Below, one piece after another: positions 3,106 through 34,146 of a stretch of 34,146 bases of DNA. Position 1 is the stretch's first letter. Each line of letters starts with the position of its first letter. The stretch is taken from assembly GCA_020426845.1 (NCBI GenBank), contig JAGQPF010000123.1, positions 1 to 34,146 on the forward strand, written 5' to 3'. Source of the DNA: Planctomycetales bacterium. GTDB taxonomy: Bacteria > Planctomycetota > Planctomycetia > Pirellulales > Pirellulaceae. The translations under genes and the position numbers were made by a program. The notes beneath the pieces are model-generated. The model did no database searches. It was given only the letters and a program-made list of their open reading frames with translations, and was not told the origin of the DNA.

Positions 3106-3621
3106 TTATTCACCGCCGGAGACGCCTTGCAGCATCTCGCCGCGGACCTTGAACGCCTGCTCAAACTCGCTGATGCGACGGAGGAGGTCCGAGACGACTG
3201 ACGCGGGAGTGTCGCCTTTGACCTCGAGTTGGCGAATGGAGCTGGCCAGCGCCTCGCACTGCTCCACCATGCGAAGGTCATGTTCGTAGACGCGATCCAG
3301 CAGCCCCGCGTCAACGCGGACATAGTCGAAGAATCCGCTGTAGCCACGCACTTGAGCGCGAATCAGTCCGATCAGTTTGTCGAGATTGACGCGGATGCGA
3401 TCGATTTCCGGCAGGGCGTCGAGATGCCCCGAGTTGAGCAGCCCTCGCGCGTATTCATCCAGCGAGGGTTTGGCGGCCTGCAGTTGATCGGCCATCGTCG
3501 TCCGCAATAGGTAGTCGGCCTCGCGGCGGTATTCCTTCTCCAGGTAGCCTCGAAAACCGGGTATCCACCTCAAAATGGACTCCACGAAATTCCGGGATTC
3601 CGCGTGTTGATGAGGCTCCAC
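3106..3621 (-). CDS. hypothetical protein (171 aa), GTG start
   Basis: The ORF has a strong AAGGAG RBS 5-6 nt upstream of the GTG at 3619-3621. It lies 200 bp upstream of the SPFH gene and is co-directional with it. I recognised no domain. Confidence 0.55.
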   Translation of the reverse strand: MEPHQHAESRNFVESILRWIPGFRGYLEKEYRREADYLLRTTMADQLQAAKPSLDEYARGLLNSGHLDALPEIDRIRVNLDKLIGLIRAQVRGYSGFFDYVRVDAGLLDRVYEHDLRMVEQCEALASSIRQLEVKGDTPASVVSDLLRRISEFEQAFKVRGEMLQGVSGGE

Positions 3622-3903
3622 AGCGACTCCTTGTGCGATTGTCGTGACGAGAACGAAAGTCAGAGAGAATTCGGCTCGGCCACGGATTTATTTGCGGGAA
3701 TCGGCCACGATCCGCAAGGCGAGGGGCCCGCGCGAGCTCGCCCCCGCGACCGAACGTCCTGGAACGGGCTGGCATCACGGCAGAAATCATAGCGAACATC
3801 GCCGATTTCGGCCACACAAACGCCACGGCGCGCCTTCTGTAGGGCTGGTGCGATTGAATTGAATGTCTACCGGCGAGAGCAACGCACCTCGGGCTCGCGC
3901 CCG

Positions 3904-3937
3904 AGGCTAACAACTGTCGCCCCTGCCGGGGCTGGAG
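3904..3937. repeat. Family-C REP-like element, single copy (GGCTAACaaCTGTCGCCCCTGCCGGGGC)
   Basis: It matches the GGCTA(A/C)CGTCTGTCGCCCCTnnnGGGGC core seen at 22170-23000, 26996-27318 and 27938-27975, and contains the hairpin gcccct-gcc-ggggc. Confidence 0.5.
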
Positions 3938-4106
3938 CGTTTGAATTGATCTCAAACCTGCCTTGCGGCGTCTGCGCCACTTCCCTACGATCCCGCACCG
4001 ATACGCGGCGCAGTCTGCGCACTCGGCCCTGACCGCGCTGAACTTGAACGAACTTCATGGGCGGGGTCGGCGTGTTTCGTGACGTGAGGATTGGGAGCTA
4101 ACGAAA

Positions 4107-5885
4107 ATGGCACGGAAGCGATGCGCCCCGTCAAACGGGCTTTGGGTCCTGGCGACGGCCACCCTCACTGCAATGGGCTGCACCAATCACTGGACGGCGC
4201 CGCGGCGAGTGCCTGTGGACCCGACCGCCGATGTGGACCTGCCCTCGGCCAACGCCGCGCCGCGCGAGTTCACCGCTCCCAACGACGTCCTGCGGATGCC
4301 CGCGACAGTCGGTCTGCCCCAGGCGCCCAAGATCGCCTACCCGGTGACTCCGGCCACGTCATTTCAGGAACAGCCTGGCGGTGTCGCGCCCGCTCAGTAT
4401 CAACAAGAGCCGTCACAGGTCGCCGTGGCGTCCATTAGTGACACCGGCAGTGAGCTGGGCACCGCCAACCACGTCCCGTTGCCACCCTTGTCGGCGCCTC
4501 CGGGCTCCGCCGAGGCGTTGGGACAAGCGTTCGGGCCGATGCAGCGGCTGCCGGAGTTGCCCGTCGCCGGAGAAATCTCCGGGGCGCCGCCCGCCTTGGA
4601 CAATGCGTTGTTCCCCGCCGGTGGGCCGACGATGGAGCCGCCGCCGTTTGACCCTGGTCGCATGCCCGAGATCGATCTGGACGTGCCGGAAATGGTGACG
4701 CCCGATGCGTTGCCCGATCCGCCCGCCGTGGATCCGGTGCCGGGCAGTGTCGAGTTCGGGCCTGGAGAACCAACACCGCTCAACGACACGGCCGACCCCC
4801 TGGACCCGCCGAATTCGCTGTTGCCGGCCGCAAGCGCGGCGCCGCTGCGAGCCAATTCGCCGCAACCACTTTCCGATGTCGAAGCGACGCCGATCCGAGC
4901 GCCGCAGTACGGCGGCTTTGAACCGCCCAACTTGGCGCTGCCCGCCGAGCCGGACGAGCCAGCAACCACGGCCGGTCGTCAGCCACTGCTGCCGGCGGGC
5001 GAGCCCGTGGAGCGGTCCTTGAGCGATGTGCCCGCCGAGAGCGCGGCGCCAGTCGAAGGCCCTCCGGCCATGGACGTCACCCCCATCGAGCTTCAAACGC
5101 CGCCGACCGTGTCGCCACCGGGCTCCGCCACGACGGAAACCAATGAGTTGGCACAACCCGTTGGGCCGTCTCCCGAGACCATGGCAAACTCCGGTGGCAC
5201 AACCGCATTGCCGGCGCCGGCCTCGGCCGCCCAGTCGCTCGTGCAGACGCTAAGCCTGTTACGCAAAGAGGCTGCCAGCGAGCAAGCCGATCCGCTGGAC
5301 GTCAAGCTGCTGCAGTTGCTGGAGGTCATCGCACATCCCGATGCACAGTGGCCCGAGAAGCTGCCGGCTGACCCGCGCTGGCGCGCCGTGGCCACGGCCG
5401 CTGCGCTCGAGTTGCGCGGGCAGCAGACCGACCGGCAGCGCGAGGTGCTGCAATCCGCGTTGGCGACGCTCGAGAGCGAGGCGCCGTTGAAGCTGCAAAA
5501 CCTGGCGTTCTGCCGACAGATCGACGACTTCGGCATCTACGCCGAGTTCAAGTCGCAGTTCCGCCCCGGCCAAGAGCTGTTGCTATACGTCGAAGTCGAG
5601 AACTTCGCGCACACCGAGACGCCCAACGGCTACTGCGTTGAAATCGAAGGCGGCTACGAGATCGTCGACGCCAACGGCCAAGTGGTTGAGAAACGCGAGT
5701 TCCTGGCCGACAAACAAACCTTCCGCCGCGAGCGTCGCGACTACTACATCCCGTATCGACTGTTCGTGCCCAAGACGATTCCGCCCGGCAAGTACACGCT
5801 GCGGCTGAACCTGACCGATGTGGCGTCGAAAACTTCGGGCGTCGGCTCGATCGAGTTGCCCGTGATCGCCGGTGAGCAGCCATGA
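4107..5885 (+). CDS. proline-rich probable lipoprotein with a C-terminal globular domain of unknown function
   Basis: The N-terminus MARKRCAPSNGLWVLATATLTAMGC is a signal peptide plus lipobox-like Cys. About 300 aa of Pro/Ala/Glu-rich low complexity follow. The C-terminal 180 aa are non-repetitive. The stop overlaps the next start (ATGA at 5882-5885). Confidence 0.75.
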   Translation: MARKRCAPSNGLWVLATATLTAMGCTNHWTAPRRVPVDPTADVDLPSANAAPREFTAPNDVLRMPATVGLPQAPKIAYPVTPATSFQEQPGGVAPAQYQQEPSQVAVASISDTGSELGTANHVPLPPLSAPPGSAEALGQAFGPMQRLPELPVAGEISGAPPALDNALFPAGGPTMEPPPFDPGRMPEIDLDVPEMVTPDALPDPPAVDPVPGSVEFGPGEPTPLNDTADPLDPPNSLLPAASAAPLRANSPQPLSDVEATPIRAPQYGGFEPPNLALPAEPDEPATTAGRQPLLPAGEPVERSLSDVPAESAAPVEGPPAMDVTPIELQTPPTVSPPGSATTETNELAQPVGPSPETMANSGGTTALPAPASAAQSLVQTLSLLRKEAASEQADPLDVKLLQLLEVIAHPDAQWPEKLPADPRWRAVATAAALELRGQQTDRQREVLQSALATLESEAPLKLQNLAFCRQIDDFGIYAEFKSQFRPGQELLLYVEVENFAHTETPNGYCVEIEGGYEIVDANGQVVEKREFLADKQTFRRERRDYYIPYRLFVPKTIPPGKYTLRLNLTDVASKTSGVGSIELPVIAGEQP

Positions 5886-7084: not shown

Positions 7085-7305
7085 TTGCGCGCAAACCCCA
7101 ATCATCACAGGCTGGCAGCCTGTGCCACGTTGTGCGCAAACCCCCAATCGTCACAGGCTGGCAGCCTGTGCCACGTTGCGCGCAAACCCCAATCGTCACA
7201 GGCTGGCAGCCTGTGCCACGTTGCGCGCAACCCCCAATCATCACAGGCTGGCAGCCTGTGCCACGTTGCGTGCAACCCAAATCATCACAGGCTGAGCGGC
7301 CGGCC
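7085..7305. repeat. Family-A tandem array: five copies of a 45-bp unit, each carrying the 17-bp perfect palindrome ACAGGCTGGCAGCCTGT
   Basis: Copies of cacaggctggcagcctgtgccacgttgcgcgcaaaccccaatcgt begin at about 7106, 7152, 7197, 7242 and 7286. The last copy is degenerate. Confidence 0.85.
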
Positions 7306-7701: not shown

Positions 7702-10494
7702 TTGAGTCAAATCGTTCTCGAGTGCCCGCACTGTAAGACCATTTTGTCCGGGCAGTCCATTCCCGCCGCCGGGACCAAACTGGACTGCCCCCAGTGCGAA
7801 CGCCCGTTTGTTGCGGAGCCGGTTCCGCTCGCGCAACTTCAAGCCCAGCGACAAGCCCAGCAGCAACAACGATTGCTTGCCGAACAGCAGCAACGATTGC
7901 TCGCCGAGCAGCAGCGTCAGCTAGCGATGCAAGAGGCGCAGCTGCGAGCACGCGCACAGGCCGAGGCGCAGCGGTCCGACCCGCTCAACCAGCCCACGCC
8001 ATCAACCTCGAGGCCGCGCACGCTCAAGGCACTCAACAAGCGCTCGCAGCCTCACATCCACCCAGCCGCGCTGATGGGGCTCGGCGCCGGCGCGGTCCTC
8101 GCCATTGCGCTGATGGTGATGATGTTCAGCGGCGGCGGAGACGAGTCGCCAAACGACGATTCCGAAACGCCGGCGAGCGGGTTGATCGCCCAGAACTCAA
8201 GCTCGGGACGATCCCCCGGCGACATCGCACAAGAGTTGCCCGTCAACTCCACGGAAGGCGGGTTTAGCGGTGGCAGCACGTTCGGCGGCGGCGGGCGTTT
8301 TGGCAGCGGTTCACCCGCCGCGTCACAACCGACCGCCTCCTCCAGCGGAAGCGAGCTTGCCTCGTCCGATTCTCCGTCGGTGAACGATTCTTCCACATCC
8401 GAGCCCGCCAACACGAGCTCGTCGCCCTCGCGCGGTGTCAGTCAATTCGCGCAATTGCCTGCATTGAAGATGGTGCCCGACACGCTGTATGGATGGCGGC
8501 CCGCACGCGAGTACATCTATCGCGTCACACTCTCCAAGAACGCCGACGGCAAAACCGAATCGCTGTCGGGCCGGATGATGTACAAGGTCAACGCCGAGGC
8601 GAGTCAGCCGATGGCGGGCACGGCCACGGGCACCGCGTTTGTCGTTCACAGCGATGGCATTTTGGTCACTTGCGCGCATGTGGTGGACTCCGCGTCCACC
8701 GTGCACGTGACGGTCGGCAACGAACGGTACCCCGCCGATGTGATCGGGTTCGACGACGAGCATGACTTGGCCGTGCTGCGCGTGCAGGCAACCGGGATGC
8801 CGTCGCTGCCGCTGGCCGACTCGGAACAAGTGCAGCTCGCCGAGGCGATTCGCGTGATCGGCTATCCGATCTCGGATATTCTCGGCACCAGCGTCAAAGT
8901 GACTCAGGGCTCAATCGCGGGCGTGGTGGACCAAGAAGTGAAGCTGTTGCAGGTGGACGCGACGGTGAATCCCGGCAATAGCGGCGGGCCGATGCTGAAC
9001 GATCGTGGCGAAGTGCTGGGAGTCGTGACTTCGGGCCTGTTTGGCAGCGACCTGGCGGAAGTGGGATTCTGCATGCCCGCCAATGACGTCCGCAACTTGT
9101 TGAAGAAAACCGGCGTGCCGTTCAAGACCGGCGGCTCCGCGGCCGCGATGGACGGCCCCGCGCTGGCCAAGGTCGCCGTGCCGAGCGTCGCCTTTGTCGA
9201 GGTGACACTTGGTGGAGGCGGAAGCGACGCGACGACCAAGCTGCTCACTTATGAAGGCGCGTTAAGCGGAGGAGTCATTCTCGGCGCGCTCGCTGCCAGC
9301 CCCTATGGCGAGGTGCTCAACGAAGAGCTGGAGTCGGAGAGCGACGAGGTCGGACTGTTCTCGGGCGACTTGGCCGGCGGTTTGTTCCAGAAAATCCCTC
9401 GCCCCGGCGTAAGCAGTTGGGAGGCCAATCGCGTCACCACCGCGATGGTCCGCAACGGAGAGAACACTCGAGAGGTTCCGGTCATGGAGCAGTCCGTCTC
9501 CGCGGTGAAGCAAGACGACAGCCAGGTGCTGGTCATCGAACGAAAGTACAGCGTCATGGCCATGGCGGACGGATCGATGGTGGAGCAACTCCCCAACGGC
9601 ACCGCGACCTGGGAGTTTGACAAAGCACAAAAGGTGCCACGCCTGGCGTCCGTCCAACTGCGTCGCCAGCGCGGCGGCCAAACCGAGTCCATCACGATCC
9701 GATACGAATTGGAGCCGCAGGGCACATCGTGGGCCACAACGCTCGAAGGCCGCACGATTATGGCGGTGAAAAGCGGCATCGCCAGAGAGGCGTTCGGTGG
9801 CGGCGCCACGCCTAGCTCGCCTAGCTCGCCGAGAACGCCGGCGCCAAGCTATGTCACCTTTACGGGTCTCGAGCCGAGCCAGAAGGTCGACTTGGCGGTC
9901 GTCACGCTCAAGGATGTCTCCAAACAATACAACCACGCCACTTGCTTGCGGGAGCTCGCGACGCTGGAGGTGATCCCCGAGCGCAAGGACGAGGTTTCCG
10001 AGGCGATCGAGGCGGCATTCCGCTACCGCCCCAACGCCCCCTACTGCATTCAGGCGTGTGTGGTGTGGGGAACCAAGCGGAACGTCGACTCGCTCCTCAC
10101 CCAGTTGGTCACGCTCAACGGCGTCACCTACGCTCGTGACGTGATCGCCGCGCTGAGAACCTGCGGGCCAACCCCCGACTCGGTCATGACCGTGATTGCG
10201 TTCTGTGGAGGCCTGTCCACTTCCAGGTCGATCTTGCTGAACGACGTGAAGCTCGAGGGGGTCAAGTTCCTCGCCGCGGCCCCGGAGTTGTCGGAGGAAG
10301 TCGCGTTGAGGCTGCTGAAGCATCCCAAGGATGAGTTGCGGATAGCCGCCTGCCAAGTCCTTGGCGCCGTCGGCAGTAAAGAAGCGCTGGTGCCGCTACG
10401 CACCGCCACCGCCAGCAACCGGGCCAACACCGCCTTGGTAAAAGCCGCCGCCAAAGAGGCTGCCAAAACGATTCAGTTCCGCATCGGCAGCTAA
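7702..10494 (+). CDS. multidomain protein: N-terminal MJ0042-type zinc ribbon, Gln-rich coiled coil, TM helix, S1C (HtrA-like) trypsin-family serine protease domain, C-terminal HEAT/PBS-lyase repeats
   Basis: The N-terminus has CPHC…CPQC, followed by the QQQRLLAEQQ repeat and the TM helix LMGLGAGAVLAIALMVMMF. The catalytic triad context is VTCAHVV, DLAVLRV and GNSGGPML. The C-terminal repeats read LRLLKHPKDELRIAACQVLGAVG. It is probably a TTG start with AAGGGG 8 nt upstream. Confidence 0.85.
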   Translation: MSQIVLECPHCKTILSGQSIPAAGTKLDCPQCERPFVAEPVPLAQLQAQRQAQQQQRLLAEQQQRLLAEQQRQLAMQEAQLRARAQAEAQRSDPLNQPTPSTSRPRTLKALNKRSQPHIHPAALMGLGAGAVLAIALMVMMFSGGGDESPNDDSETPASGLIAQNSSSGRSPGDIAQELPVNSTEGGFSGGSTFGGGGRFGSGSPAASQPTASSSGSELASSDSPSVNDSSTSEPANTSSSPSRGVSQFAQLPALKMVPDTLYGWRPAREYIYRVTLSKNADGKTESLSGRMMYKVNAEASQPMAGTATGTAFVVHSDGILVTCAHVVDSASTVHVTVGNERYPADVIGFDDEHDLAVLRVQATGMPSLPLADSEQVQLAEAIRVIGYPISDILGTSVKVTQGSIAGVVDQEVKLLQVDATVNPGNSGGPMLNDRGEVLGVVTSGLFGSDLAEVGFCMPANDVRNLLKKTGVPFKTGGSAAAMDGPALAKVAVPSVAFVEVTLGGGGSDATTKLLTYEGALSGGVILGALAASPYGEVLNEELESESDEVGLFSGDLAGGLFQKIPRPGVSSWEANRVTTAMVRNGENTREVPVMEQSVSAVKQDDSQVLVIERKYSVMAMADGSMVEQLPNGTATWEFDKAQKVPRLASVQLRRQRGGQTESITIRYELEPQGTSWATTLEGRTIMAVKSGIAREAFGGGATPSSPSSPRTPAPSYVTFTGLEPSQKVDLAVVTLKDVSKQYNHATCLRELATLEVIPERKDEVSEAIEAAFRYRPNAPYCIQACVVWGTKRNVDSLLTQLVTLNGVTYARDVIAALRTCGPTPDSVMTVIAFCGGLSTSRSILLNDVKLEGVKFLAAAPELSEEVALRLLKHPKDELRIAACQVLGAVGSKEALVPLRTATASNRANTALVKAAAKEAAKTIQFRIGS

Positions 10495-10509
10495 CCGCGA
10501 GCTCGCGCG

Positions 10510-10695
10510 CCTCGGCCGGCGCAAGTCGGCTGCGCAGTGCCGCACGGGCGAGGGCGCCCATGCTACGCGCGAAGCGTGCCTTCGCCGGCGCAAGTGGGCT
10601 GCGCAATGCCGCACGGGCGAGGGCGCCCATGCTACGCGCGAAGCGTGCCTTGGCCGGCGCAAGTGGGCTGCGCAGTGCCGCACGGGGCCTTGCTC
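10510..10695. repeat. Family-B tandem repeat: about 2.7 copies of an approximately 61-bp unit (GGCCGGCGCAAGTGGGCTGCGCAGTGCCGCACGGGCGAGGGCGCCCATGCTACGCGCGAAGCGTGCCTT)
   Basis: The direct repetition is visible in the sequence. It lies in the convergent intergenic region between the protease gene and ettA. A related copy at 14263-14380 is in the inverted orientation. Confidence 0.8.
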
Positions 10696-10731
10696 ATCCG
10701 TGTTTCATCGGTGTTGCATCCGTGGCCATTC
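10696..10731 (-). repeat. Family-D element, second copy, 11 nt 3' of the ettA stop codon
   Basis: The minus-sense sequence is TGGCCACGGATGCAACACCGATGAAACACGGATGAGCA, compared with TGGCCACGGATGAACACGGTTGAAACACGGATGAGCA at 1453-1490. Confidence 0.5.
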
Positions 10732-12440: not shown

Positions 12441-12513
12441 ACAGGCTGCCAGCCTGTGATCATTTTTGTTAACTAGGAACCTGTTGGGCCGCAGGTTGCA
12501 GGCTGGCAGCCTG
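12441..12513. repeat. Two further family-A palindrome copies (cacaggctgccagcctgtg at 12441-12463; gcaggctggcagcctgc at 12497-12513)
   Basis: These are the same CAGGCTGGCAGCCTG palindrome as the 7085-7305 array. They sit between the guaA stop and the ettA start. Confidence 0.8.
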
Positions 12514-12548
12514 CACTACGACGAGTTTTCAACGGGCTTCCCGGCTGC

Positions 12549-19397: not shown

Positions 19398-21614
19398 ATG
19401 ATCCTCGCGCGCTGGCTGTCCTTGGCTCTCCTTCTTGCCTTCGTCGCCGAGTGTGGCGCCGAAGTGGGGCAGAAGATCGACGACTTTGAACTGCGGGACT
19501 TTCGGGGCAAGACGTGGTCGTTGCGAGAGTCGGGCGACCGCACCATCGTGCTGGCGTTTCTCGGCACCGAATGCCCGCTGGTGCAGTTCTACGCCAAACG
19601 GCTCGAAGAATTGCAAGCCGAGTACGCGGAGCGAGGCGTCGTGGTGGTTGGCATCGACTCCAACCTGCAGGACTCGTTGGCCGAGCTGGCGTCGTTCGCG
19701 CGCCGCCACGATCTCACCTACCCGCTGCTCAAGGACCCCGGCAACCGCGTGGCCGATCAGTTGGGCGCCGAGCGCACGCCCGAAGTGTTTCTGCTCGATC
19801 GTCAACGACACGTTCGCTATCGCGGGCGAATCGACGATCAGTACACCTACGGCATCGCTCGCACCAAGCCCACTCAGCGTTATCTGCGCGACGCGATCGA
19901 AGCCTTGCTCGGCAACCGCCCGGTGGCCTTGGCGGAAACCGAGACCGTGGGCTGTCACATCGGTCGTGTGCTGACGCCGCAAACCGACAGTGACGTCACC
20001 TACTCGAATCAGATCGCCCGCATCTTTCAGCAGCGGTGCGTCGAATGCCACCGCCCCGGCGAGATCGCTCCGTTCCCGCTGACCACTTACGAGGAGACTT
20101 TGGGCTGGGCCGAGATGATCGACGAGGTCACCTCCGAGCGACGCATGCCGCCATGGCACGCCGAGCCGGGTCATCAACAATATGCCAACGACGCCCACTT
20201 GAGCGACGAGGAGCTCCGGACCATTCGAAAATGGGTCGCCGCCGGCGCTCCCGAAGGCGATCCCAAGGAGCTGCCTCAGCCAGTTCAATTCACCGAAGGC
20301 TGGCGAATCGGCGAGCCCGATCGCATCGTTTGGATGTCGGAGAAGTCGTTTTCCGTGCCGGCCGAGGGAGAGGTCAAGTACCAATACTTCACGGTCGACC
20401 CGAAGTTCGAAACCGACATGTGGGTGCAGGCGGCGGAATGCCGACCGGGCAATCGAGCGGTCGTGCATCACATTATCGTCGGCATCAAATCCCCGAATGA
20501 GGATCAAGACGGCGTGCACGGCGTTCGCTCGGAATGGCTCGCTGCCACCGCGCCGGGCGCCCAGCCGATGATTTTGCCATCAGGACAAGCGAAGCTCATT
20601 CCTGCCCGATCGAAGCTCGTCTTTCAAATGCACTACACGCCCAACGGCACCAAGCAGACCGATCGCAGTTCCATCGGCTTGCGTTTCATCGAGGCGTCAG
20701 CGGTGAAACATCGCGTGGCCACCCACAAGGCGATCAACACCCGATTCCGCATTCCCCCGCACGCGGCAAATCACAAGGAAACCACTCGGCCGTACACTTT
20801 CGGCTCCGCCGGCTACTTGGTGTCGATGTTTCCCCACATGCATCTACGCGGCAAGTCGTTCACTTATGTGGCCCACTTCCCCGATGGACGCCCCGATCAA
20901 ACTCTGCTGCATGTGCCGCGCTATGACTTCAATTGGCAGAACGGCTACCTGTTGAAAGAGCCGATGCTGATGCCCAAAGGGACTCAGATCGTCTGTGACG
21001 CGGTCTTCGACAACTCGGAGGACAACCTGGCCAATCCCGATCCCAAACAGACCGTGAGCTGGGGAGACCAGACCGACGAGGAGATGATGATCGGCTACTT
21101 CGACATCTACGACGCGGAAGACGCCAGCCGCACCCAAGAGTTCATCGGCCGACTCGACCAACTCCAGCGGAAGTCGCTCGCCGACGCAGCTCGCGGTTCG
21201 TTGCATGCCGAGCGACAATTCACGCGCTTTGCCCAACAGCTTCGACTGGCCATGCCACAGGTCGATCGCGTCGATTGGACCGTCCATGAACAGCGCAAGT
21301 TGAAGGTGCTGCTGGTGGCCCAAGACGCCTCCACCAGGCGAACGCTGCTCGGGCAATTGGTCACCAGCGACGCCGAGATGGCGTTGCCGACCGTGGCAAG
21401 CCAAACCGAGCCGGTGGTGCACGCGAACCTTGCCAGCGTTCCCGGCAAGGACTTTGCGCACATGCGCAGACTGATGGCCTCCAGCGCGCATTTCCCGATC
21501 GAGTTGGATGGCAAGCGTGGCGTGATCAGCTTCTGGAGCACGGAGCGCAACGCGTTTCCCGATTCGGCGGTGAAGCTGCTGCAAGAGCTGGCTCCGATCA
21601 TGGCGACTCCGTGA
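19398..21614 (+). CDS. secreted redox fusion protein: thioredoxin-fold (redoxin/AhpC-TSA-like, single Cys) + c-type cytochrome (CxxCH) + copper type-II ascorbate-dependent monooxygenase-like (PHM/DBH-like) domain + C-terminal extension
   Basis: The signal peptide is MILARWLSLALLLAFVAEC. Redox motifs include FLGTECPLV and the heme site CVECH. The His/Met ligand pattern is VVHHIIVG … QMHYTPNG … FPHMHLRG … DEEMMIGYF, with spacings like the PHM CuH/CuM sites. The stop overlaps the mug start (GTGA). Confidence 0.8.
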   Translation: MILARWLSLALLLAFVAECGAEVGQKIDDFELRDFRGKTWSLRESGDRTIVLAFLGTECPLVQFYAKRLEELQAEYAERGVVVVGIDSNLQDSLAELASFARRHDLTYPLLKDPGNRVADQLGAERTPEVFLLDRQRHVRYRGRIDDQYTYGIARTKPTQRYLRDAIEALLGNRPVALAETETVGCHIGRVLTPQTDSDVTYSNQIARIFQQRCVECHRPGEIAPFPLTTYEETLGWAEMIDEVTSERRMPPWHAEPGHQQYANDAHLSDEELRTIRKWVAAGAPEGDPKELPQPVQFTEGWRIGEPDRIVWMSEKSFSVPAEGEVKYQYFTVDPKFETDMWVQAAECRPGNRAVVHHIIVGIKSPNEDQDGVHGVRSEWLAATAPGAQPMILPSGQAKLIPARSKLVFQMHYTPNGTKQTDRSSIGLRFIEASAVKHRVATHKAINTRFRIPPHAANHKETTRPYTFGSAGYLVSMFPHMHLRGKSFTYVAHFPDGRPDQTLLHVPRYDFNWQNGYLLKEPMLMPKGTQIVCDAVFDNSEDNLANPDPKQTVSWGDQTDEEMMIGYFDIYDAEDASRTQEFIGRLDQLQRKSLADAARGSLHAERQFTRFAQQLRLAMPQVDRVDWTVHEQRKLKVLLVAQDASTRRTLLGQLVTSDAEMALPTVASQTEPVVHANLASVPGKDFAHMRRLMASSAHFPIELDGKRGVISFWSTERNAFPDSAVKLLQELAPIMATP

Positions 21615-22228
21615 GAGCCGTCGCGTCACGCCGGCCGACTCGCGCCGAACTCGAAGCGGCTCGGGACAAGCTGGTTCCCGACGTGATTGCGGACGATCTC
21701 GAGTTGCTGTTTGTCGGCATCAACCCCAGCTTGTATTCCGCCGCGCTCGGTCAACACTTCGCCCGCCCCGGCAATCGATTCTGGCCCGCGTTGCACGGAG
21801 CCGGCTTCACACCGCGACTCTGGTCGCCCCCCGAGCAAGCGAATCTGGTGGAGCAGGGCATCGGGATCACGAACGTGGTTGCACGAGCCACCGCGCGAGC
21901 CGATGAGCTATCCCGCGACGAACTTGTGCAAGGCATGCAGCGTCTGACGGCGCTGGCAGAACAACATCGAATCGTGCACATCGCGTTTCTGGGCATCACG
22001 GCATATCGCACCGGGTGCGACCGCCAACAGGCCGTCATCGGGCCGCAGGCAGAGCGTATCGGCAACGCCGCCGTCAGTGTGCTGCCCAATCCCAGCGGGC
22101 TCAACGCCCATTATCAGCTGGCCGATCATATCGCGTTGCTCAAGGCGCTTCGACAGCGGATCCGAGGCTCGAGGGCGCGAGCCTGTGGAGTCGCATGCAC
22201 AGGCCCCGCCAAGGGCGACAGACGGTAG
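21611..22228 (+). CDS. mug: G/U mismatch-specific uracil-DNA glycosylase (Mug/TDG, UDG family 2)
   Basis: LLFVGINPSLYSAALGQHFARPGNRFW matches the Mug active-site region (GINPG…PANRFW), and NPSGLN lies near the C-terminus. It is a GTG start. The last approximately 12 codons run into the repeat array, so the stop is uncertain. Confidence 0.75.
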   Translation: MRAVASRRPTRAELEAARDKLVPDVIADDLELLFVGINPSLYSAALGQHFARPGNRFWPALHGAGFTPRLWSPPEQANLVEQGIGITNVVARATARADELSRDELVQGMQRLTALAEQHRIVHIAFLGITAYRTGCDRQQAVIGPQAERIGNAAVSVLPNPSGLNAHYQLADHIALLKALRQRIRGSRARACGVACTGPAKGDRR

Positions 22229-22690
22229 CCCCAGGCGCAAGCCGGCGCAAGCCCGTGGAGTGGCGCGGGCCGCGCGCAAAAAGCCCCGGAGGGCCGGAGG
22301 GGCGACAGACGGTAGCCGTGGGCGCAAGCCGGCGCAAGCCCAGGGAATGAGGCGCGGGCCGCGCGCAAAAAGCCCCGGAGGGGCGACAGACGGTAGCCTT
22401 GGGCGCAAGCCCAAGGAATGAGGCGCGGGCCGCGCGCAAAAAGCCCAGGAGGGGCGACAGACGTTTGCCCTGGGCGCGAGCCGGCGCAAGCCCAGGGAAT
22501 GAGGCCCGGGCCGCGCGCAAAAAGCCCCGGAGGGGCGACAGACGGTAGCCTTGGGCGCAAGCCCAAGGAATGAGGCGCGGGCCGCGCGCAAAAAGCCCCG
22601 GAGGGGCGACAGACGGTAGCCCTGGGCGTAAGCCGGCGTAAGCCCAGGGAATGAGGCGCGCAAGCCGCGCAGCGCCGGCGGCTCGCGCGG
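22170..22690. repeat. Family-C tandem array, orientation 1: about 6 copies of a 66-78-bp unit (GCGCGGGCCGCGCGCAAAAAGCCCCGGAGGGGCGACAGACGGTAGCCnnGGGCGCAAGCC[GGCGCAAGCC]CAGGGAATGAG)
   Basis: The repetition is visible in the sequence. Each unit holds two palindromes (gcgcgg-g-ccgcgc; gcccc-gga-ggggc) flanked by an A5 run, which reads as a hairpin + U5 on the minus strand. Peptides repeat in the shadow ORFs on both strands. Confidence 0.9.
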
Positions 22691-22735
22691 TTCAATGAAC
22701 ACGTCGCCCCGCAAGGCAGAGCCAACTCGCACAAC

Positions 22736-23000
22736 TCCACGGGCTTGCGCCCGTGGCTACCTTCTGTCGCCCCTTGCGGGGCTGGTGCGCGTGGTGTGCG
22801 CGACTCCACGGGCTTGCGCCCGTGGCTACCTTCTGTCGCCCCTTGCGGGGCTGGTGCGCGTGGCGTGCGCGACTCCACGGGCTTGCGCCCGTGGCTACCT
22901 TCTGTCGCCCCTTGCGGGGCCTGGTGCGCGTGGTGTGCGCGACTCCACGGGCTTACGCCCGTGGCTACCTTCTGTCGCCCCTTGCGGGGCCGGTGCGCAT
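22736..23000. repeat. Family-C tandem array, inverted orientation: 4 copies of a 69-bp unit (CACGGGCTTGCGCCCGTGGCTACCTTCTGTCGCCCCTTGCGGGGCTGGTGCGCGTGGTGTGCGCGACTC)
   Basis: The units are roughly the reverse complement of those in 22170-22690 and lie about 45 bp from them. This creates an approximately 800-bp quasi-palindromic region between mug and the propeller gene. Confidence 0.9.
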
Positions 23001-23083: not shown

Positions 23084-24307
23084 ATGTCGCGACGCGCACT
23101 CTTTGCCACCTCACTTGCCCTGCTGGCGTCCGGTCTCCTTCATTCCTCACACGTCAGTGGCGAGCAGCCGTGGACGCAGTGGCGTGGCCCGCATGGCGAC
23201 GGGCACTCGGACGCCCCGGCGCTGCTTCGTTGGAATGACGAGAACGTGACCTGGAAGACGGCATTGCCGGGGCTCGGCCAATCGTCGCCGGTCGTTTGGG
23301 GCGACCGTATCTTCTTGACCGGCGCCGAGAACGATGGCGCCAAGCGGATCGTGTTCTGCGTCTCGCGGAAAAACGGCAAACTGCTCTGGCAGCAGACCGC
23401 CTGGACGGGCGACGCGGAGAAGACGCACCAGATGAATCGTTGGGCGTCCGCGACGTGCGCCACCGACGGCGAGCGGGTCGTGGCCTTCTTTGGCCGCGGC
23501 GGGCTGCACTGTTATTCGATGGACGGCACGCGGCTCTGGTCGCGCGAGCTGGGCGATTTTGAAAACGTCTGGGGCACTGCCGCGTCGCCGATCATCGCGG
23601 GCGAGCTCGTGATTCAAAATTGTGACGCCGAGGACAGCGGGTCATGCCTGGTCGCCCTGAACAAGGAGACGGGGGCCGAGGTGTGGCGCACGGCCCGCGA
23701 GCAACTGCGTGGCTGGTCAACGCCGGTCGTGGTGGCCAACGGTGACAAGCAAGAGCTGGTGCTCAACGGCGAGACCGGAGTGTTTGGCTACGACTTGGCC
23801 AGCGGCGCCCAACTCTGGTTCAGCAAGGGCGACACCGGCCGCGGCACCCCCACCGTGACGCCGACGGGCGACGGGCTGCTGGTCGTCGTCAACGGACGGC
23901 CTGGCGACATGTTCGCCGTGCAAGCGGACGGCAAGGAAGTCTGGCGGACCAAGCGCAAAGGCGGCCGCGACTTGCCCTCGCCGATCGTGCTCGACGGCCA
24001 GGTGATCGTCGTCAGCTTGCGCCCCGGCACCGCGACCAGCTACATCGCCTCCAGTGGCAAGGAGACCGCTCGGCTGCGGCTGGACGGCAGCTTCTCCGCG
24101 TCGCCGATCGCCGTCTCGGGACACGCGATCATCCCCAACGAAGATGGCTTGGTCTATGTGCTCAAGGCCGGCGACCAGGGCGTGGAGGTGGTTTCGAAGA
24201 ACAAGATCACCTTGCGAGCGGAAAACGAGATCTTCCGCGCTTGCGTGACGCCGCTGGAGGACGGACTGCTGCTGCGGTCCGACCAGACGCTGTACCTGAT
24301 CCAGTAA
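23084..24307 (+). CDS. secreted PQQ-like beta-propeller repeat protein (BamB-like fold)
   Basis: The signal peptide is MSRRALFATSLALLASGLL. Repeated …DG.(L/V)W… blades (GKLLWQQT, GTRLWSREL, GAEVWRT, GAQLWFS, GKEVWRT) are present. The listed 520-aa ORF is over-extended through the repeat array. Confidence 0.8.
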   Translation: MSRRALFATSLALLASGLLHSSHVSGEQPWTQWRGPHGDGHSDAPALLRWNDENVTWKTALPGLGQSSPVVWGDRIFLTGAENDGAKRIVFCVSRKNGKLLWQQTAWTGDAEKTHQMNRWASATCATDGERVVAFFGRGGLHCYSMDGTRLWSRELGDFENVWGTAASPIIAGELVIQNCDAEDSGSCLVALNKETGAEVWRTAREQLRGWSTPVVVANGDKQELVLNGETGVFGYDLASGAQLWFSKGDTGRGTPTVTPTGDGLLVVVNGRPGDMFAVQADGKEVWRTKRKGGRDLPSPIVLDGQVIVVSLRPGTATSYIASSGKETARLRLDGSFSASPIAVSGHAIIPNEDGLVYVLKAGDQGVEVVSKNKITLRAENEIFRACVTPLEDGLLLRSDQTLYLIQ

Positions 24308-26730: not shown

Positions 26731-26995
26731 GACAAGCTCCTCACCTAAAGGCCCAAGTGACGTGGAATCCTTCGGATGACGGGAAAAGGGGTTCCCCGGA
26801 TGGAGAAGGTGCTTTTCCTCGTCTTGTTAGAAAACAAGCAATTCTCGCGCCGGCAGGCAATGTCGAAGCGACCGTTGGAACCCGGCCTTGCAGTCAACAC
26901 GTTGAAGGTGGATTCGATTGCCAGTTGGCGCCTAGACGTCGCGAAGCGTCACGGCAGAACACAACCGCGCTGTGCGTTCACGCACGCCACGGCTC

Positions 26996-27318
26996 CACGG
27001 GCTCGCGCCCGTGGCTAACGTCTGTCGCCCCTCCGGGGCTTTTTAGCGTAATGAACTTGAGCGAAGTTCGACCGGTTTGCGCCACGTTTCCACAGGCGCG
27101 CTCGCAGATTCACGGGCGCGCACGCCGATCCACGGGCTCACGCCCGTGGCTAACGTCTGTCGCCCTTGGGGGCTTTTTCAGCGTTATGAACTTGAGCGAA
27201 GTTCGACCGGTTTGCGCCGCATTTCCACGGGCGCGCACGCAGATACATGGGCGCGCACGCCACGCGCACAAGCCCCGAAGGGGCGACAGACGTTAGCCAC
27301 GGGCGCGAGCGCGTGGAA
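26996..27318. repeat. Family-C composite repeats: two copies of an approximately 135-bp unit plus one inverted core copy
   Basis: cacgggctcgcgcccgtggctaacgtctgtcgcccctccggggctttttagcgtaatgaacttgagcgaagttcgaccggtttgcgcc… repeats at 26996 and 27131. The inverted core agccccgaaggggcgacagacgttagccacgggcgcgagcgcgtgg is at 27270-27318. Each unit has a hairpin + T5. Confidence 0.85.
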
Positions 27319-27398: not shown

Positions 27399-27875
27399 TT
27401 AGCCGCCCGTCAGGGAGGACATGAGAAATCCCAGGCTGACCCAGCCTCCTTGTCCGATCCCCGCGAGCGCGAACACCATCTGCCCGACGGCGGCGACAGC
27501 GAGTGTCATTTGGCCCAGAGCTAACGGCGCGACGGCGAGCTGCCCGATGGCAAGAATTCGCCCGGTGGCAAGTTGGCCGATGCCGATATAGCCCTGTGCC
27601 ATCTGGCCAATCGCAATTCCGCCGACGGCGAACTGGCCGATCGCGACCACGCCTCGAGCCACTTCTCGCTTGCCCGTTTCGGGATTAATCCCCCGAATGA
27701 TCTGCAACATCGGCAGACCGAAAAGAGAAGTTTCGGAGGTGTACTCCCGGTAGGTCGCCCCATCGTAGTGCACGAACTCGCGAATGGTGCCGTGGGCTGT
27801 GCGCGTCACCGTAAATTTGGGATGCGAGACCAGATACGACTGCTTGACGTGCGAATTGCTGCGTTTGACGACCAT
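27399..27875 (-). CDS. hypothetical protein with a C-terminal hydrophobic heptad (A/G)IGQ(L/M/F)A repeat domain
   Basis: It probably starts at MVVKRSN (AGGAGAA RBS); the listed ORF begins 50 codons upstream inside repeat DNA. The C-terminal 90 aa read AIGQFAVGGIAIGQMAQGYIGIGQLATGRILAIGQLAVAPLALGQMTLAVAAVGQMVFALAGIGQGG. Confidence 0.6.
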   Translation of the reverse strand: MVVKRSNSHVKQSYLVSHPKFTVTRTAHGTIREFVHYDGATYREYTSETSLFGLPMLQIIRGINPETGKREVARGVVAIGQFAVGGIAIGQMAQGYIGIGQLATGRILAIGQLAVAPLALGQMTLAVAAVGQMVFALAGIGQGGWVSLGFLMSSLTGG

Positions 27876-27937
27876 AAGTTCTCCTGTGGCGAGCCAACTT
27901 CGCCAAGCTGCTTTCCCGCTTTTCCCCGAGCTCGCGC

Positions 27938-27975
27938 TCGAGGCTAACGTCTGTCGCCCCTGCAGGGGCTTTGCT
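27938..27975. repeat. Family-C REP-like element, single copy (GGCTAACGTCTGTCGCCCCTGCAGGGGC)
   Basis: It has the same core as the arrays. It is followed by G-tracts. Confidence 0.6.
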
Positions 27976-31913: not shown

Positions 31914-34146
31914 CGTGAGTCAACAACCGTTCGACGATCTCTTTGCCGACAGCCCGACCAATCGGAACACCTCCTCCAATCGGAACAATCAGCAACCCAA
32001 CAGCCCCACCTTAAAGGTCGACTCCCTCGAGCCTCGCGTGCTGCTCTCGGGGACGTGCCTCCCCGGCGCTGACTTGGACTATGACGTCGAACCGCAAGGC
32101 GAGGTGTTCGATGGCGCCGCATACGGAGACGATGCCGACTTCCTGGGACACGACGGACACGTCGCCGACAGTGCCCACCACGGAGGTTATGGCAAGCACG
32201 ATGGTGGCGGACATCATGACTTGGGCCTGAACGACTATGACGACGGCGGCCACGATCAGCCCGTGGCCAAACACGGCGGACATGATGGCGGCGACGGACA
32301 CAAAGTCGACGATGGCGGCCATCACGCCAATGCGAAGCAGTACGGCGGCGATAGCCACGACAGCCACGACAAGCCGCATCAAGAAGTGCATGCCAAGTAC
32401 GGCGGTGACGACGGCGATGGCGACGGCCACGACAGCGGCAAACATCAGCCGGTCGCACAGAAATATGACGATCATGGCGATGATGGCGCCAACGAGAGTC
32501 ACGAAAAGCCCCACCAAGAGGCGCATGCGAAGTATGGACACGGTGGCGGCGATGACGGTGGCGACCATGACAAGCCCCACCAAGGAGTGCATGCCAAGCA
32601 CGGCAGTGACGACGGCGGCGGCGATGACCATGACGGCGGCGGCAAATATCAGCCGGTCGAGCAGAAGCATGATGACGGCGGCGACCACGATAAGCCCCAC
32701 CAGGAAGTGCATGCCAAGTACGACGGTGGCGACGACGGTGGCGATGACCATGACGGCGGCGACAAATATCAGCCGGTCGAGCAGAAGCATGATGACGGCG
32801 GCGACCACGACAAGCCCGAGGTGCATGCCAAGTACGCTGGCACCGACGACGGTGGCGACGACAATGACGGCGGCGACAAATATCAGCCGGTCGAACAGAA
32901 GCATGATGACGGCGGCGACCACGACAAGCCCGAGGTGCATGCTAAGTACGCCGGTACCGACGACGGTGGCGATGGCCATGACGGCGGCGACAAGTATCAG
33001 CCGGTCGAGCAGAAGCATGATGACGGCGGCGACCATGACAAGCCCCACCAAGAAGTGCATGCCAAGTACGACAGTGGCGACGACGGTGGCGATGACCATG
33101 ACGGCGGCGACAAATATCAGCCGGTCGAGCAGAAGCATGACGACGGTGGCGATGGCCATGGCGGCGGCGACAAGTATCAGCCGCTCGAGCAGAAGCATGA
33201 TGACGACTTCAAAGTCAGTCACGACAAGTCGCAGCAAGAAGCCAATTACGGCGGCGGTGACGACAGTCCGTCGGATGCGACTTGGGCCGCCGACGTTAGC
33301 ACCACTGACGACTCAACCGACTCAGGCACTGTAGCGACAGAGGGAACCGACGACGGCAACCCGGGATCCAGTAACGACACCTACGGCGGAGATTCGCAAT
33401 CGCAATCTTCCTGGGTGTCCGATCATTCGGCAGCAGACGACACGGACAACGGCGAGGACACTCCTGCCGGGTATGGTGTCACGATCACCGAATCAGGCCC
33501 CTCGACTCCCGCGACGGACAGTTCGACAACGAGCAATGCTGAAGGTTACGGAACCGACGATTCAAAGGTGACCAACCACAGTGATGAAGTTAACGGCTCC
33601 GACGACAACGGCTGGGCAGCTGCCACCGACGACAGTAGCAGCGGAACCAATGACACCACCTACGGTTCCGGCGACACGGAAGTGATCGACGAAGGCGGCG
33701 ATGACAGCTCCGACGACACCGATTGGACGGTGGACGACATCGCTGACACCGACGATGGTGGAATCGACGACTCCGGAGGTTCCACCTACGGCGCCGGCGA
33801 CTCGGACGTGACCAACGACGATGGCGACGACACCGGTTGGACAGCGGACAACGTCGTCGCTGACACTGACGACAGCGGCAGCGACGCTGGCGAAACGGAC
33901 GTGACCAACGACACTAGTTGGACTGCGGACGACTCGGCTGGCACCGACGACAGCGGAAACTCCGACTCCGGTGATTCGACTTACGGCGCCGGCGAAACGG
34001 ACGTGACCAACGACGTCGGCGACGACAGCTCCGACGACACCGGCTGGACCGCGGACGACTCGGCTAGCACCGACGACACCGACGACGGTGGAAGCGATGA
34101 CTCCGGTGATTCGACCTATGGCGCCGGCGACTCGGACGTGACCAAC
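31914..34146 (+). CDS. partial giant repetitive protein: LEPR-XLL-like N-terminal motif, His/Asp-rich 37-40-aa tandem repeats, then acidic Asp/Thr/Ser/Gly repeats; 3' end beyond the window
   Basis: One frame stays open from the GTG at 31914 (in-frame TGA at 31884) to the window end (about 744 codons). The N-terminus carries …TLKVDSLEPRVLLSGT…. About 8 repeats of DKYQPVEQKHDDGGDHDKPHQEVHAKYDGGDDGGDDHDGG follow, then GWTADDSAGTDDSGNSDSGDSTYGAGETDVTND-type repeats. The listed ORFs 32011..33237(-) and 32237..33334(+) are shadow frames of these repeats. Confidence 0.75.
32290..33240 (+). repeat. Intragenic tandem coding repeats (111-120-nt units, about 8 copies, the last five more than 90% identical at DNA level)
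   Basis: GACAA(A/G)TATCAGCCGGTCGAGCAGAAGCATGATGACGGCGGCGACCACGACAAGCCC… recurs at about 32644, 32764, 32875, 32989, 33109 and 33169. Confidence 0.85.

Follow-up and report, generated by a model that had tools for sequence, protein, structure and literature searches.

Fifteen copies of a 46-nt, two-hairpin unit were found in contig JAGQPF010000123.1 of a Planctomycetales bacterium (Pirellulaceae, assembly GCA_020426845.1), which was analysed over its whole 34,146 nt and is referred to as the window. Judged by their sequence matches, the copies are members of the Rfam family RF01687 (Acido-Lenti-1). They are probably DNA repeats of the REP/REPIN type (repetitive extragenic palindromes, REPs, and REP doublets forming hairpins, REPINs), in clusters resembling bacterial interspersed mosaic elements (BIMEs), and not small RNA (sRNA) genes or transcription terminators, with their Y1 transposase encoded outside the window. 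The sequence family (since 2010) and systems of this type, in which REP-like repeats go with a Y1 enzyme, were already known, while the link of RF01687 units to the transposase clade described below appears to be unreported so far.

A two-hairpin repeat of the RF01687 family

The initial annotation of the window had placed the repeat core at five positions, and all five were recovered as model or Rfam matches (the units starting at 3887, 26995, 27130, 27271 and 27924; Table 1). However, this list was incomplete. A pattern search with the 18-nt core GGCTAMCGTCTGTCGCCC gave 15 matches in the window against a chance expectation of 0.06, and the ten further copies, six on the minus strand at about 22203-22649 opposite four on the plus strand at 22737-22991, form head-to-head the largest cluster, at 22.2-23.0 kb. 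In an alignment of the 15 copies only about 50 nt were conserved, and the 46-nt unit consists of an 8-bp hairpin P1 (for example CCACGGGC-TCGC-GCCCGTGG), a conserved 12-nt linker, CTA(A/C)C(G/T)TCTGTC, and a hairpin P2 with a 5-bp stem, GCCCC-TCC-GGGGC. The P1 pairing is kept across the window copies by compensatory changes, as CCACGGGC, CCTTGGGC, CCCTGGGC and CCTCGGGC are each accompanied by the matching 3′ arm.

Ten window copies scored at or above the RF01687 gathering score of 37 bits (37.4–52.5 bits, with the model matched over its full length) and three more reached 25–33 bits, and the rest of Rfam gave no other match in the window even at E < 1. That the repeat was an already catalogued family had not been recognised in the initial annotation. 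Acido-Lenti-1 was described from 89 sequences, mostly of Lentisphaera araneosa and Koribacter and including two of Rhodopirellula baltica; it was rated a probable non-coding RNA (‘RNA? y’) solely from covariation, and the sole published remark on the motif is that it lies ‘sometimes near group II introns’ (Weinberg et al., 2010; PMC2864571). In the five papers found to name the motif, no function is assigned to it. Similar to the window copies, the family has a 46-nt two-hairpin consensus, and its published seed contains tandem copies 74–200 nt apart as well as the planctomycete R. baltica (NC_005027). The window subfamilies add a tail of five T residues (T5) and duplications within the P1 loop, both foreign to the RF01687 consensus. 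Further, Rfam labels the family ‘Gene; sRNA’ with unknown function, whereas the units analysed here behave as repeat DNA linked with a Y1 transposase.

To cover other genomes, a genome collection was scanned with the core pattern, which yielded 80 loci from Planctomycetota, Lentisphaeria/Victivallales, Acidobacteriota, Chloroflexota, Verrucomicrobiota, Bacteroidales and other groups. Viral contigs gave just two core-pattern matches, so no phage link is indicated. A covariance model, R1, built from the Rfam seed sequences and the window copies, detected 143 copies in the window and these 80 loci and 117 more in the metagenomic loci described below, 260 in total. Among the 260 copies, the tag abutting P1 on the strand opposite to the Rfam annotation was GTAG in 152, TTAG in 48, ATAG in 33 and CTAG in 6 (NTAG in 239 of 260), and in the window copies it reads GGTAG or GTTAG. 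Read in this direction, the unit has the layout of a REP, with a GTAG/TTAG tag ahead of a GC-rich palindrome.

Inverted doublets around Y1 transposase genes

The units were arranged in a strongly oriented manner. Neighbouring units were head-to-head, (-)(+), in 33 cases vs. tail-to-tail, (+)(-), in 6, with a modal gap of about 101 nt, and same-strand (tandem) neighbours were separated by 22–27 nt. Outside the window, units mostly stood in inverted pairs of about 240 nt, a stereotyped dyad element that was found across Planctomycetota, Chloroflexota, Bacteroidales and other groups with the layout [P2′-GACAGAnG-GTAG-P1′] – ~22-nt spacer – [P2′-GACAGA – 15–25-nt loop – TCTGTC-P2] – ~22-nt spacer – [P1-CTAC-nTCTGTC-P2]. 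The ~22-nt spacers are variable, being neither conserved nor mutually complementary. The two P1 hairpins within one composite are often unlike, yet each is still perfectly self-complementary, which suggests that selection acts on the local hairpins; a long fold-back hairpin formed by the whole composite was rejected on these grounds, as the halves differ while each local hairpin is perfect and the spacers do not pair. Solo units, gene-less dyads of about 240 nt and tandem arrays of ‘unit + ~22-nt spacer’ are dispersed between unrelated genes. One complete composite of 63–70% GC was seen at an orthologous site in two Bacteroidales metagenome-assembled genomes (MAGs; L026:1534-1726 and L037:6482-6674), which hints at a horizontal transfer of the repeat or its carrier into another phylum.

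In the genome loci, 1,010 open reading frames (ORFs) lay no more than 2.5 kb from a unit, and these were then compared all-vs-all. The top clusters of flanking ORFs spanned three loci each, and only one was notable, a 145–150-aa ORF in loci L014, L015 and L038. This ORF matched Pfam Y1_Tnp (PF01797; E = 1e-27 to 1e-31) with the HUH motif and the catalytic tyrosine intact, and passed the NCBIfam transpos_IS200 model (NF033573) with 82–87 bits at a cutoff of 55. Upstream of the gene lie at least one (-) unit, a ~22-nt spacer and an extra P2 module, and downstream lies their mirror image. In detail, at L014 the Y1 gene exactly replaces the central loop of a composite, in the order outer (-) unit, spacer, inner P2′, ATG, stop, inner P2, spacer, outer (+) unit. 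The gene was present in 3 of the 80 unit-selected loci, so gene-less copies predominate. Beside the Y1 gene of L038 (740-880 and 1440-1510), modules made of P2 alone and ending in a following GAAGA (AGCCCGGAGGGC / GCCCTCCGGGCTGAAGA) occur in three repeats per side at a spacing of about 31–33 nt, and P2 can thus multiply without P1.

To evaluate this association with a sampling independent of the repeat sequence, 80 metagenomic loci carrying relatives of the Y1 protein at 40–77% identity were used. Units occurred in 50 of the 80 loci, and on both sides of the gene in 25. The nearest upstream unit was (-) in 32 of 38 cases and the nearest downstream unit (+) in 28 of 34, and the unit density was 2.40 per kb within 250 nt of the Y1 genes vs. 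0.17 per kb beyond, a 14-fold difference. The official Rfam model alone gave 47 above-threshold matches across 20 of these loci. When ten ‘no-hit’ loci were inspected, most had the same layout with large P1-loop insertions that the model could not bridge, indicating that the true association of units with Y1 genes lies above the raw count.

The signature Y...Q..HH was present in 76 of the 80 metagenomic relatives, the Y motif being YI.NQ..HH, and by this signature the partner enzyme would belong to TnpA-Y1 subclass 1.2. Subclass 1.2 has been characterised by the same signature as a low-copy group near the IS200 transposases, without IS200-type ends, ‘not sharing IS properties’ and with no repeats reported alongside (Quentin et al., 2018; PMC6006769).

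Two further observations were made on these units and genes. The P1 loop is an insertion hotspot: 10–11-nt duplications of GGCTTGCGCC were seen in the window at 22231-22262, 22318-22349, 22470-22497 and 22622-22649, and units beside Y1 genes in metagenomic loci L084, L091, L107 and L128 carry P1-loop inserts of 30–50 nt that self-fold into a hairpin. At L148:2424-2680, where the relative of the Y1 gene is AT-rich and has no Acido-Lenti-1 units, the gene is followed by another tandem repeat, GCGCTAAAATAATGTCGCAC, with a period of about 30 nt, which may be a diverged partner repeat.

The Rfam annotation implies that each unit is a trans-acting sRNA gene, transcribed and acting as a structured RNA, and the covariation on which that rating was made proved strong here as well: in 124 distinct copies, 98.1% of stem cells were paired and 12 of the 13 pairs showed double compensatory changes, which none of 500 shuffles equalled. 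However, on the Rfam strand A.C stem mismatches outnumbered G.T mismatches by 33 to 14 (binomial p = 0.008, with copies that are not independent), and by 15 to 6 in the 36 Rfam seed sequences, the reverse of what is expected for an RNA of the annotated strand. This places the tolerated wobble on the GTAG strand, as for a hairpin read there, a pointer that is suggestive only. Further, the flanks are unconserved and the gaps of 22–27 nt between tandem units leave no room for promoters, units of both orientations are combined in mirror-image pairs, a transposase gene is systematically enclosed between units, and no sigma-70-like promoter was found within 21.5–28.3 kb of the window. With this evidence, sRNA genes appear a very improbable identity for the units.

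T5 tails and gene context of the window copies

The initial annotation had stated that each core is followed by T5 and had suggested mobile intrinsic terminator or insulator modules, that is, that P2 with the U5 run terminates transcription and that the repeats spread by insulating neighbouring genes. T5 follows P2 in 6 of the 13 model-detected window copies and in one more copy detected by the pattern search only, so 7 of 15 copies have a 5-bp GC stem, a 3-nt loop and T5. The P2 stem with T5 fitted a simple terminator-like pattern in five copies, and in predicted RNA folds of -25 to -29 kcal/mol P2 stands immediately before the U-run (unit 26995..27040, which is also a scan match, folds at -28.7 kcal/mol, z = -3.7). 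In addition, a (+) unit downstream of a Y1 gene could end that gene's transcript, and classical REPs have been described as influencing termination and mRNA stability (Di Nocera et al., 2013; PMC3733652).

However, T5 was true of only two of the five cores first listed (26995 and 27130), the others ending in GGGGCTGGAG, GGGGCTTGTG and GGGGCTTTGC, and about half of all window copies are without it. None of the 247 copies outside the window has five or more T after P2, and one has four, so the T-run is specific to subfamilies in this genome. The gene orientation is also wrong for terminators: the T5-bearing (-) copies at 22284-22649 lie between two (+) genes, for a uracil-DNA glycosylase (UDG) and a pyrroloquinoline quinone (PQQ)-propeller protein (ATG 23084), and the T5-bearing (+) copies 26995 and 27130 have (-) genes on either side. 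Thus, none of the T5 copies is downstream of a co-oriented gene. Copies 3887 and 27924 stand between divergent gene starts, and the single copy just downstream of a co-oriented ORF, 27271-27316, has no T-run. Moreover, termination has no need of the conserved P1, tag and linker. These results indicate that the T5 tail is not the nature of the element; a terminator or insulator identity is not supported and we consider it unlikely, although by their predicted folds some T5 copies may possibly terminate transcription incidentally.

The suggestion of a mobile module resembling REPs or miniature inverted-repeat transposable elements (MITEs), made in the same annotation, was borne out by the tag and palindrome anatomy, the inverted doublets, the tandem clusters and the inverted ends of the Y1 gene elsewhere. 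The longer composite it had noted was also confirmed, as a 133-nt unit duplicated directly at 26994-27126 and 27129-27261 (family D15; 89% identical, offset 135 nt). The window as a whole contains one solo unit, one composite of head-to-head type that is degenerate and extends into an array at either side, and whose inner pair, 22594-22649(-) and 22737-22783(+), is separated by 87 nt, and one (+)(+)(-) cluster, in which the unit at 27271..27316 is 90% complementary to 26990-27049 (inverted repeat I4). The array periods of 69–71 nt and 135–152 nt match the ‘unit + ~22-nt spacer’ arrays beside Y1 genes elsewhere, which supports BIME-like clusters.

Table 1. Copies of the two-hairpin unit and associated features in the window; bit scores refer to RF01687 or to the covariance model R1.
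Feature	Position	Strand	Matches and context
Solo unit; P1 CCTCGGGC/GCCCGAGG, linker CTAACAACTGTC, P2 GCCCC/GGGGC	3887..3933	+	RF01687 42.5 bits (above the gathering score), R1 48.4 bits; no T-run; divergent neighbouring genes 3106-3621(-) and 4107-5885(+)
Leftmost degenerate unit, 10-nt P1-loop duplication	22203..22262	-	Pattern match 22213-22230; P2 module 22203-22221
Unit with duplicated P2 arm and P1-loop duplication, T5 tail	22284..22349	-	Pattern match 22300-22317; terminator-like scan match 22299-22284
Canonical unit, T5 tail	22371..22416	-	RF01687 52.5 bits, R1 58.8 bits; two-hairpin fold
Unit with P1-loop insertion, T5 tail	22442..22497	-	RF01687 25.1 bits (sub-threshold, E = 0.08), R1 30.6 bits
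Canonical unit, T5 tail	22523..22568	-	RF01687 52.5 bits
Unit with 11-nt P1-loop insertion, T5 tail	22594..22649	-	RF01687 44.6 bits; inner half of head-to-head pair
Degenerate composite centre	22650..22736		Inner P2 module of canonical composites reduced to the remnant GTCGCCCCGCAAGG
Four tandem units, period 69-70 nt	22737-22783, 22806-22852, 22875-22921, 22945-22991	+	RF01687 40.2, 40.2, 33.0 and 37.4 bits; no T-run; upstream of PQQ-propeller gene; repeat families D3, D4
Canonical unit, T5 tail, opens first 135-nt composite repeat	26995..27040	+	RF01687 49.2 bits
Unit with 4-bp P2, T5 tail, opens second 135-nt composite repeat	27130..27174	+	RF01687 39.7 bits; family D15
Unit with one P1 mismatch, tail CTTGTG	27271..27316	-	RF01687 40.8 bits; 83 nt past the stop of ORF 27399-27878(-)
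Unit with P1 C.A mismatch, tail CTTTGC	27924..27970	+	RF01687 32.7 bits (sub-threshold, E = 7e-4), R1 41.4 bits; lies between divergent genes, 46 nt before the start of ORF 27399-27878(-)

The 15 copies per 34 kb are all extragenic bar one. The claim that they are always intergenic therefore held nearly: the four (+) copies of the large array lie upstream of the true ATG at 23084, but the leftmost (-) copy overlaps the 3′ end of the UDG ORF (21611-22228) and encodes its last codons, with the TAG in the GGTAG tag as the stop codon (22226-22228). Repeat-derived sequence makes up the last ~20 codons of this uracil-DNA-glycosylase-family ORF (22150-22228). Target-site duplications were not seen in any consistent form. 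A possible direct repeat of ~12 nt, 3851-3866 / 3939-3953 (GCGATTGAATTGA / GCGTTTGAATTGA), flanks the solo unit together with about 27 nt of repeat-related sequence upstream of it, and may stem from target duplication or from chance; target duplications are not an expected product of HUH transposition.

The units 27271-27316(-) and 27924-27970(+) bracket a 159-aa ORF, 27399-27878(-), at a spacing which matches that of units at Y1 genes elsewhere. The ORF encodes a small hydrophobic AIGQ-repeat protein without Pfam match, and was rejected as a diverged Y1 transposase, since no Pfam match appeared even at E = 10 and the protein is membrane-like.

Several other repeats were noted in the window. 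Between two (+) genes at 7085-7280 lie four tandem 45–46-nt repeats with the palindromes TTGCGCGCAA and CACAGGC-TGGCA-GCCTGTG; a related solo palindrome is found at 12499-12520, and together they represent another REP-like family, unrelated to the first and unmatched in Rfam. At 10505-10711, a 930-aa ORF ending at 10494 is directly followed by three GC-rich repeats of 69 nt in tandem (93% and 67% identical to the first). The region 32230-33330 is highly repetitive, with periods of 114–120 nt and a strong AT skew, and one of its frames encodes His/Asp/Gly-rich repeats, while a second repeat set of 135–195 nt, rich in Asp/Thr/Gly codons, occupies 33600-34146 and runs past the end of the window. 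The best homologues of a neighbouring decarboxylase, for which no exact protein match was on record, are 74% identical (Planctomycetaceae MAGs), and that of Aporhodopirellula is 68% identical. Protein similarity thus marks the organism as a planctomycete, with no near relative among the database entries.

Relation to known mobile repeats

Several identities were rejected from the anatomy of the units. A CRISPR array does not fit because the array ‘spacers’ are themselves repeated; integron attC sites do not fit because there are two short separate hairpins instead of one long imperfect one, and no cassettes; and a type III toxin-antitoxin RNA array does not fit because no toxin gene is adjacent. 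In a comparison with a MITE of a DDE-type insertion sequence (IS), the composites have inverted ends of about 46 nt, and the partner enzyme is HUH and not DDE. Rho-independent terminators share with 7 of the 15 window copies the GC stem followed by T5, and differ from the family in the respects given above, namely the unconserved T-run, the orientation to genes, and a P1, tag and linker without a role in termination.

There is a close likeness to the REP/BIME/REPIN systems with a REP-associated tyrosine transposase (RAYT) (Nunvar et al., 2010; Bertels and Rainey, 2011; Ton-Hoang et al., 2012; Di Nocera et al., 2013). In both, a GC-rich palindrome has a GTAG-type tag at its foot, the units are grouped in inverted doublets and in clusters whose spacers are fixed in length and variable in sequence, copies are mostly extragenic (here as judged from the 15 window copies), and a Y1 HUH gene is bracketed by inverted units, here in other genomes and metagenomes and not in the window. 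GTAG-tagged REPs are known from the PVC (Planctomycetes–Verrucomicrobia–Chlamydiae) superphylum and Chloroflexi (Di Nocera et al., 2013; PMC3733652). In contrast to the REP-RAYT systems, the enzyme here is not a class-2 RAYT and lacks the YIxxNP motif, the unit has the second hairpin P2 and the conserved 12-nt linker, and an extra P2-only module adjoins the gene. Thus, as far as its sequence features can tell, the system would work like a REPtron without being a canonical RAYT system.

The TnpA-Y1 enzymes of subclass 1.2 are similar to the present ones in Y---Q--HH, in the short protein with a conserved C-terminal tail, in low copy number and in having no IS200-type terminal structures. However, subclass 1.2 was placed mostly in Cyanobacteria and Bacteroidetes with no repeat family reported (PMC6006769), whereas the relatives found here have Acido-Lenti-1 units at their flanks and come from Planctomycetota and other MAGs. 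The ‘TIRtrons’, whose inverted ends are double-palindromic (Di Nocera et al., 2013; PMC3733652), and TnpA-Y1 class 3, a REPtron-like system of Planctomycetes and Acidobacteria (Quentin et al., 2018; PMC6006769), also resemble the present elements, in that Y1 genes lie between long inverted repeats, some of them ‘double palindromic’, and dispersed copies are moderately to highly abundant in Acidobacteria and Planctomycetes. The enzyme and tag described here match neither: the TIRtron enzymes (TIRYTs) are mostly of subclass 2.1, with helix-turn-helix (HTH) tails and a GGGGWSAS motif, and class 3 has NHVH and YV..EQ motifs and a CnGA foot.

It was also considered that the units are the ends and miniature derivatives of an ordinary active IS of the IS200/IS605 type, in which case the window copies would be dead MITE-like relics with no host role. 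The enzyme matches PF01797 and passes the IS200 equivalog model NF033573, the composites are exact gene-less versions of the gene-bearing element, and the presence of the element in many phyla, including the GC-rich copies in Bacteroidales MAGs, suggests horizontal transfer. However, the ends of IS200/IS605 elements are asymmetric subterminal hairpins in direct orientation and not inverted, whereas here the upstream units are (-) and the downstream units (+), forming mirror-image ends. Further, subclass 1.2 is low-copy and has no IS200 ends (PMC6006769), the gene was found in just 3 of 80 unit-selected loci, and BIME-like arrays in tandem are a usual trait of REP systems but not of IS relics. 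Such an origin seems to us doubtful.

For a REP/REPIN-like repeat, the following mechanism is conceivable by analogy with the TnpA of IS200/IS605 and with RAYT/TnpA-REP. A Y1 enzyme would bind the hairpins of the unit in single-stranded DNA, for example on the lagging-strand template, and would cleave and rejoin the DNA beside them, with the tag and linker as a guide or cleavage context, and gene-less copies would thereby be spread or maintained in trans. The T5 tail would be a subfamily feature of this genome that could lend some copies an incidental terminator activity.

Several points weigh against this interpretation. No Y1 gene was found in the window, where tblastn with four Y1 proteins gave chance matches only (E > 0.7), so the window copies are non-autonomous and the enzyme, if the genome has one, is encoded elsewhere. 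The partnership of unit and enzyme is deduced from other organisms and not from the source genome, and that this genome encodes such an enzyme, that the enzyme acts on these hairpins and that it moves or maintains the copies is what we infer by analogy. The recurring Y1 protein fails the NCBIfam RAYT model NF047646 (19–23 bits, cutoff 80) and thus falls outside the canonical RAYTs. In arrangement, most window copies are non-canonical, with tandem arrays, a convergent (+)(+)(-) cluster and a sole composite with a degenerate centre. The covariation fits RNA and single-stranded-DNA hairpins equally and cannot distinguish between them, and a role at the RNA level, in transcript stabilisation or termination, may coexist. 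Finally, as the window variant supplied the scan pattern, the choice of genome loci leans towards similar sequences, a bias from which the metagenomic Y1 loci are free.

On a wider view, which we favour only by a modest degree, RF01687 would be the single-stranded-DNA recognition end of TnpA-Y1 subclass 1.2, a third REP/RAYT-like system beside the class-2 RAYTs and class 3, distinguished by its two-hairpin, GTAG-tagged unit and spanning Planctomycetota, Lentisphaerota, Acidobacteriota, Chloroflexota and Bacteroidota, with the T5 subfamily of this genome maybe co-opted as strand-specific transcription stops. For the window itself, the suggestion of a novel mobile terminator is removed. For the family, an orphan Rfam ‘sRNA’ would gain a concrete identity, that of a REP-like hairpin DNA bound by a Y1 HUH transposase, and an orphan transposase clade would gain its missing DNA partner. 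Annotation pipelines that call Acido-Lenti-1 an sRNA gene are probably labelling repeat DNA. REP/REPIN-type systems would thereby extend into the PVC superphylum and other little-studied phyla, and the two-hairpin substrate could reveal how Y1 enzymes choose their sites.

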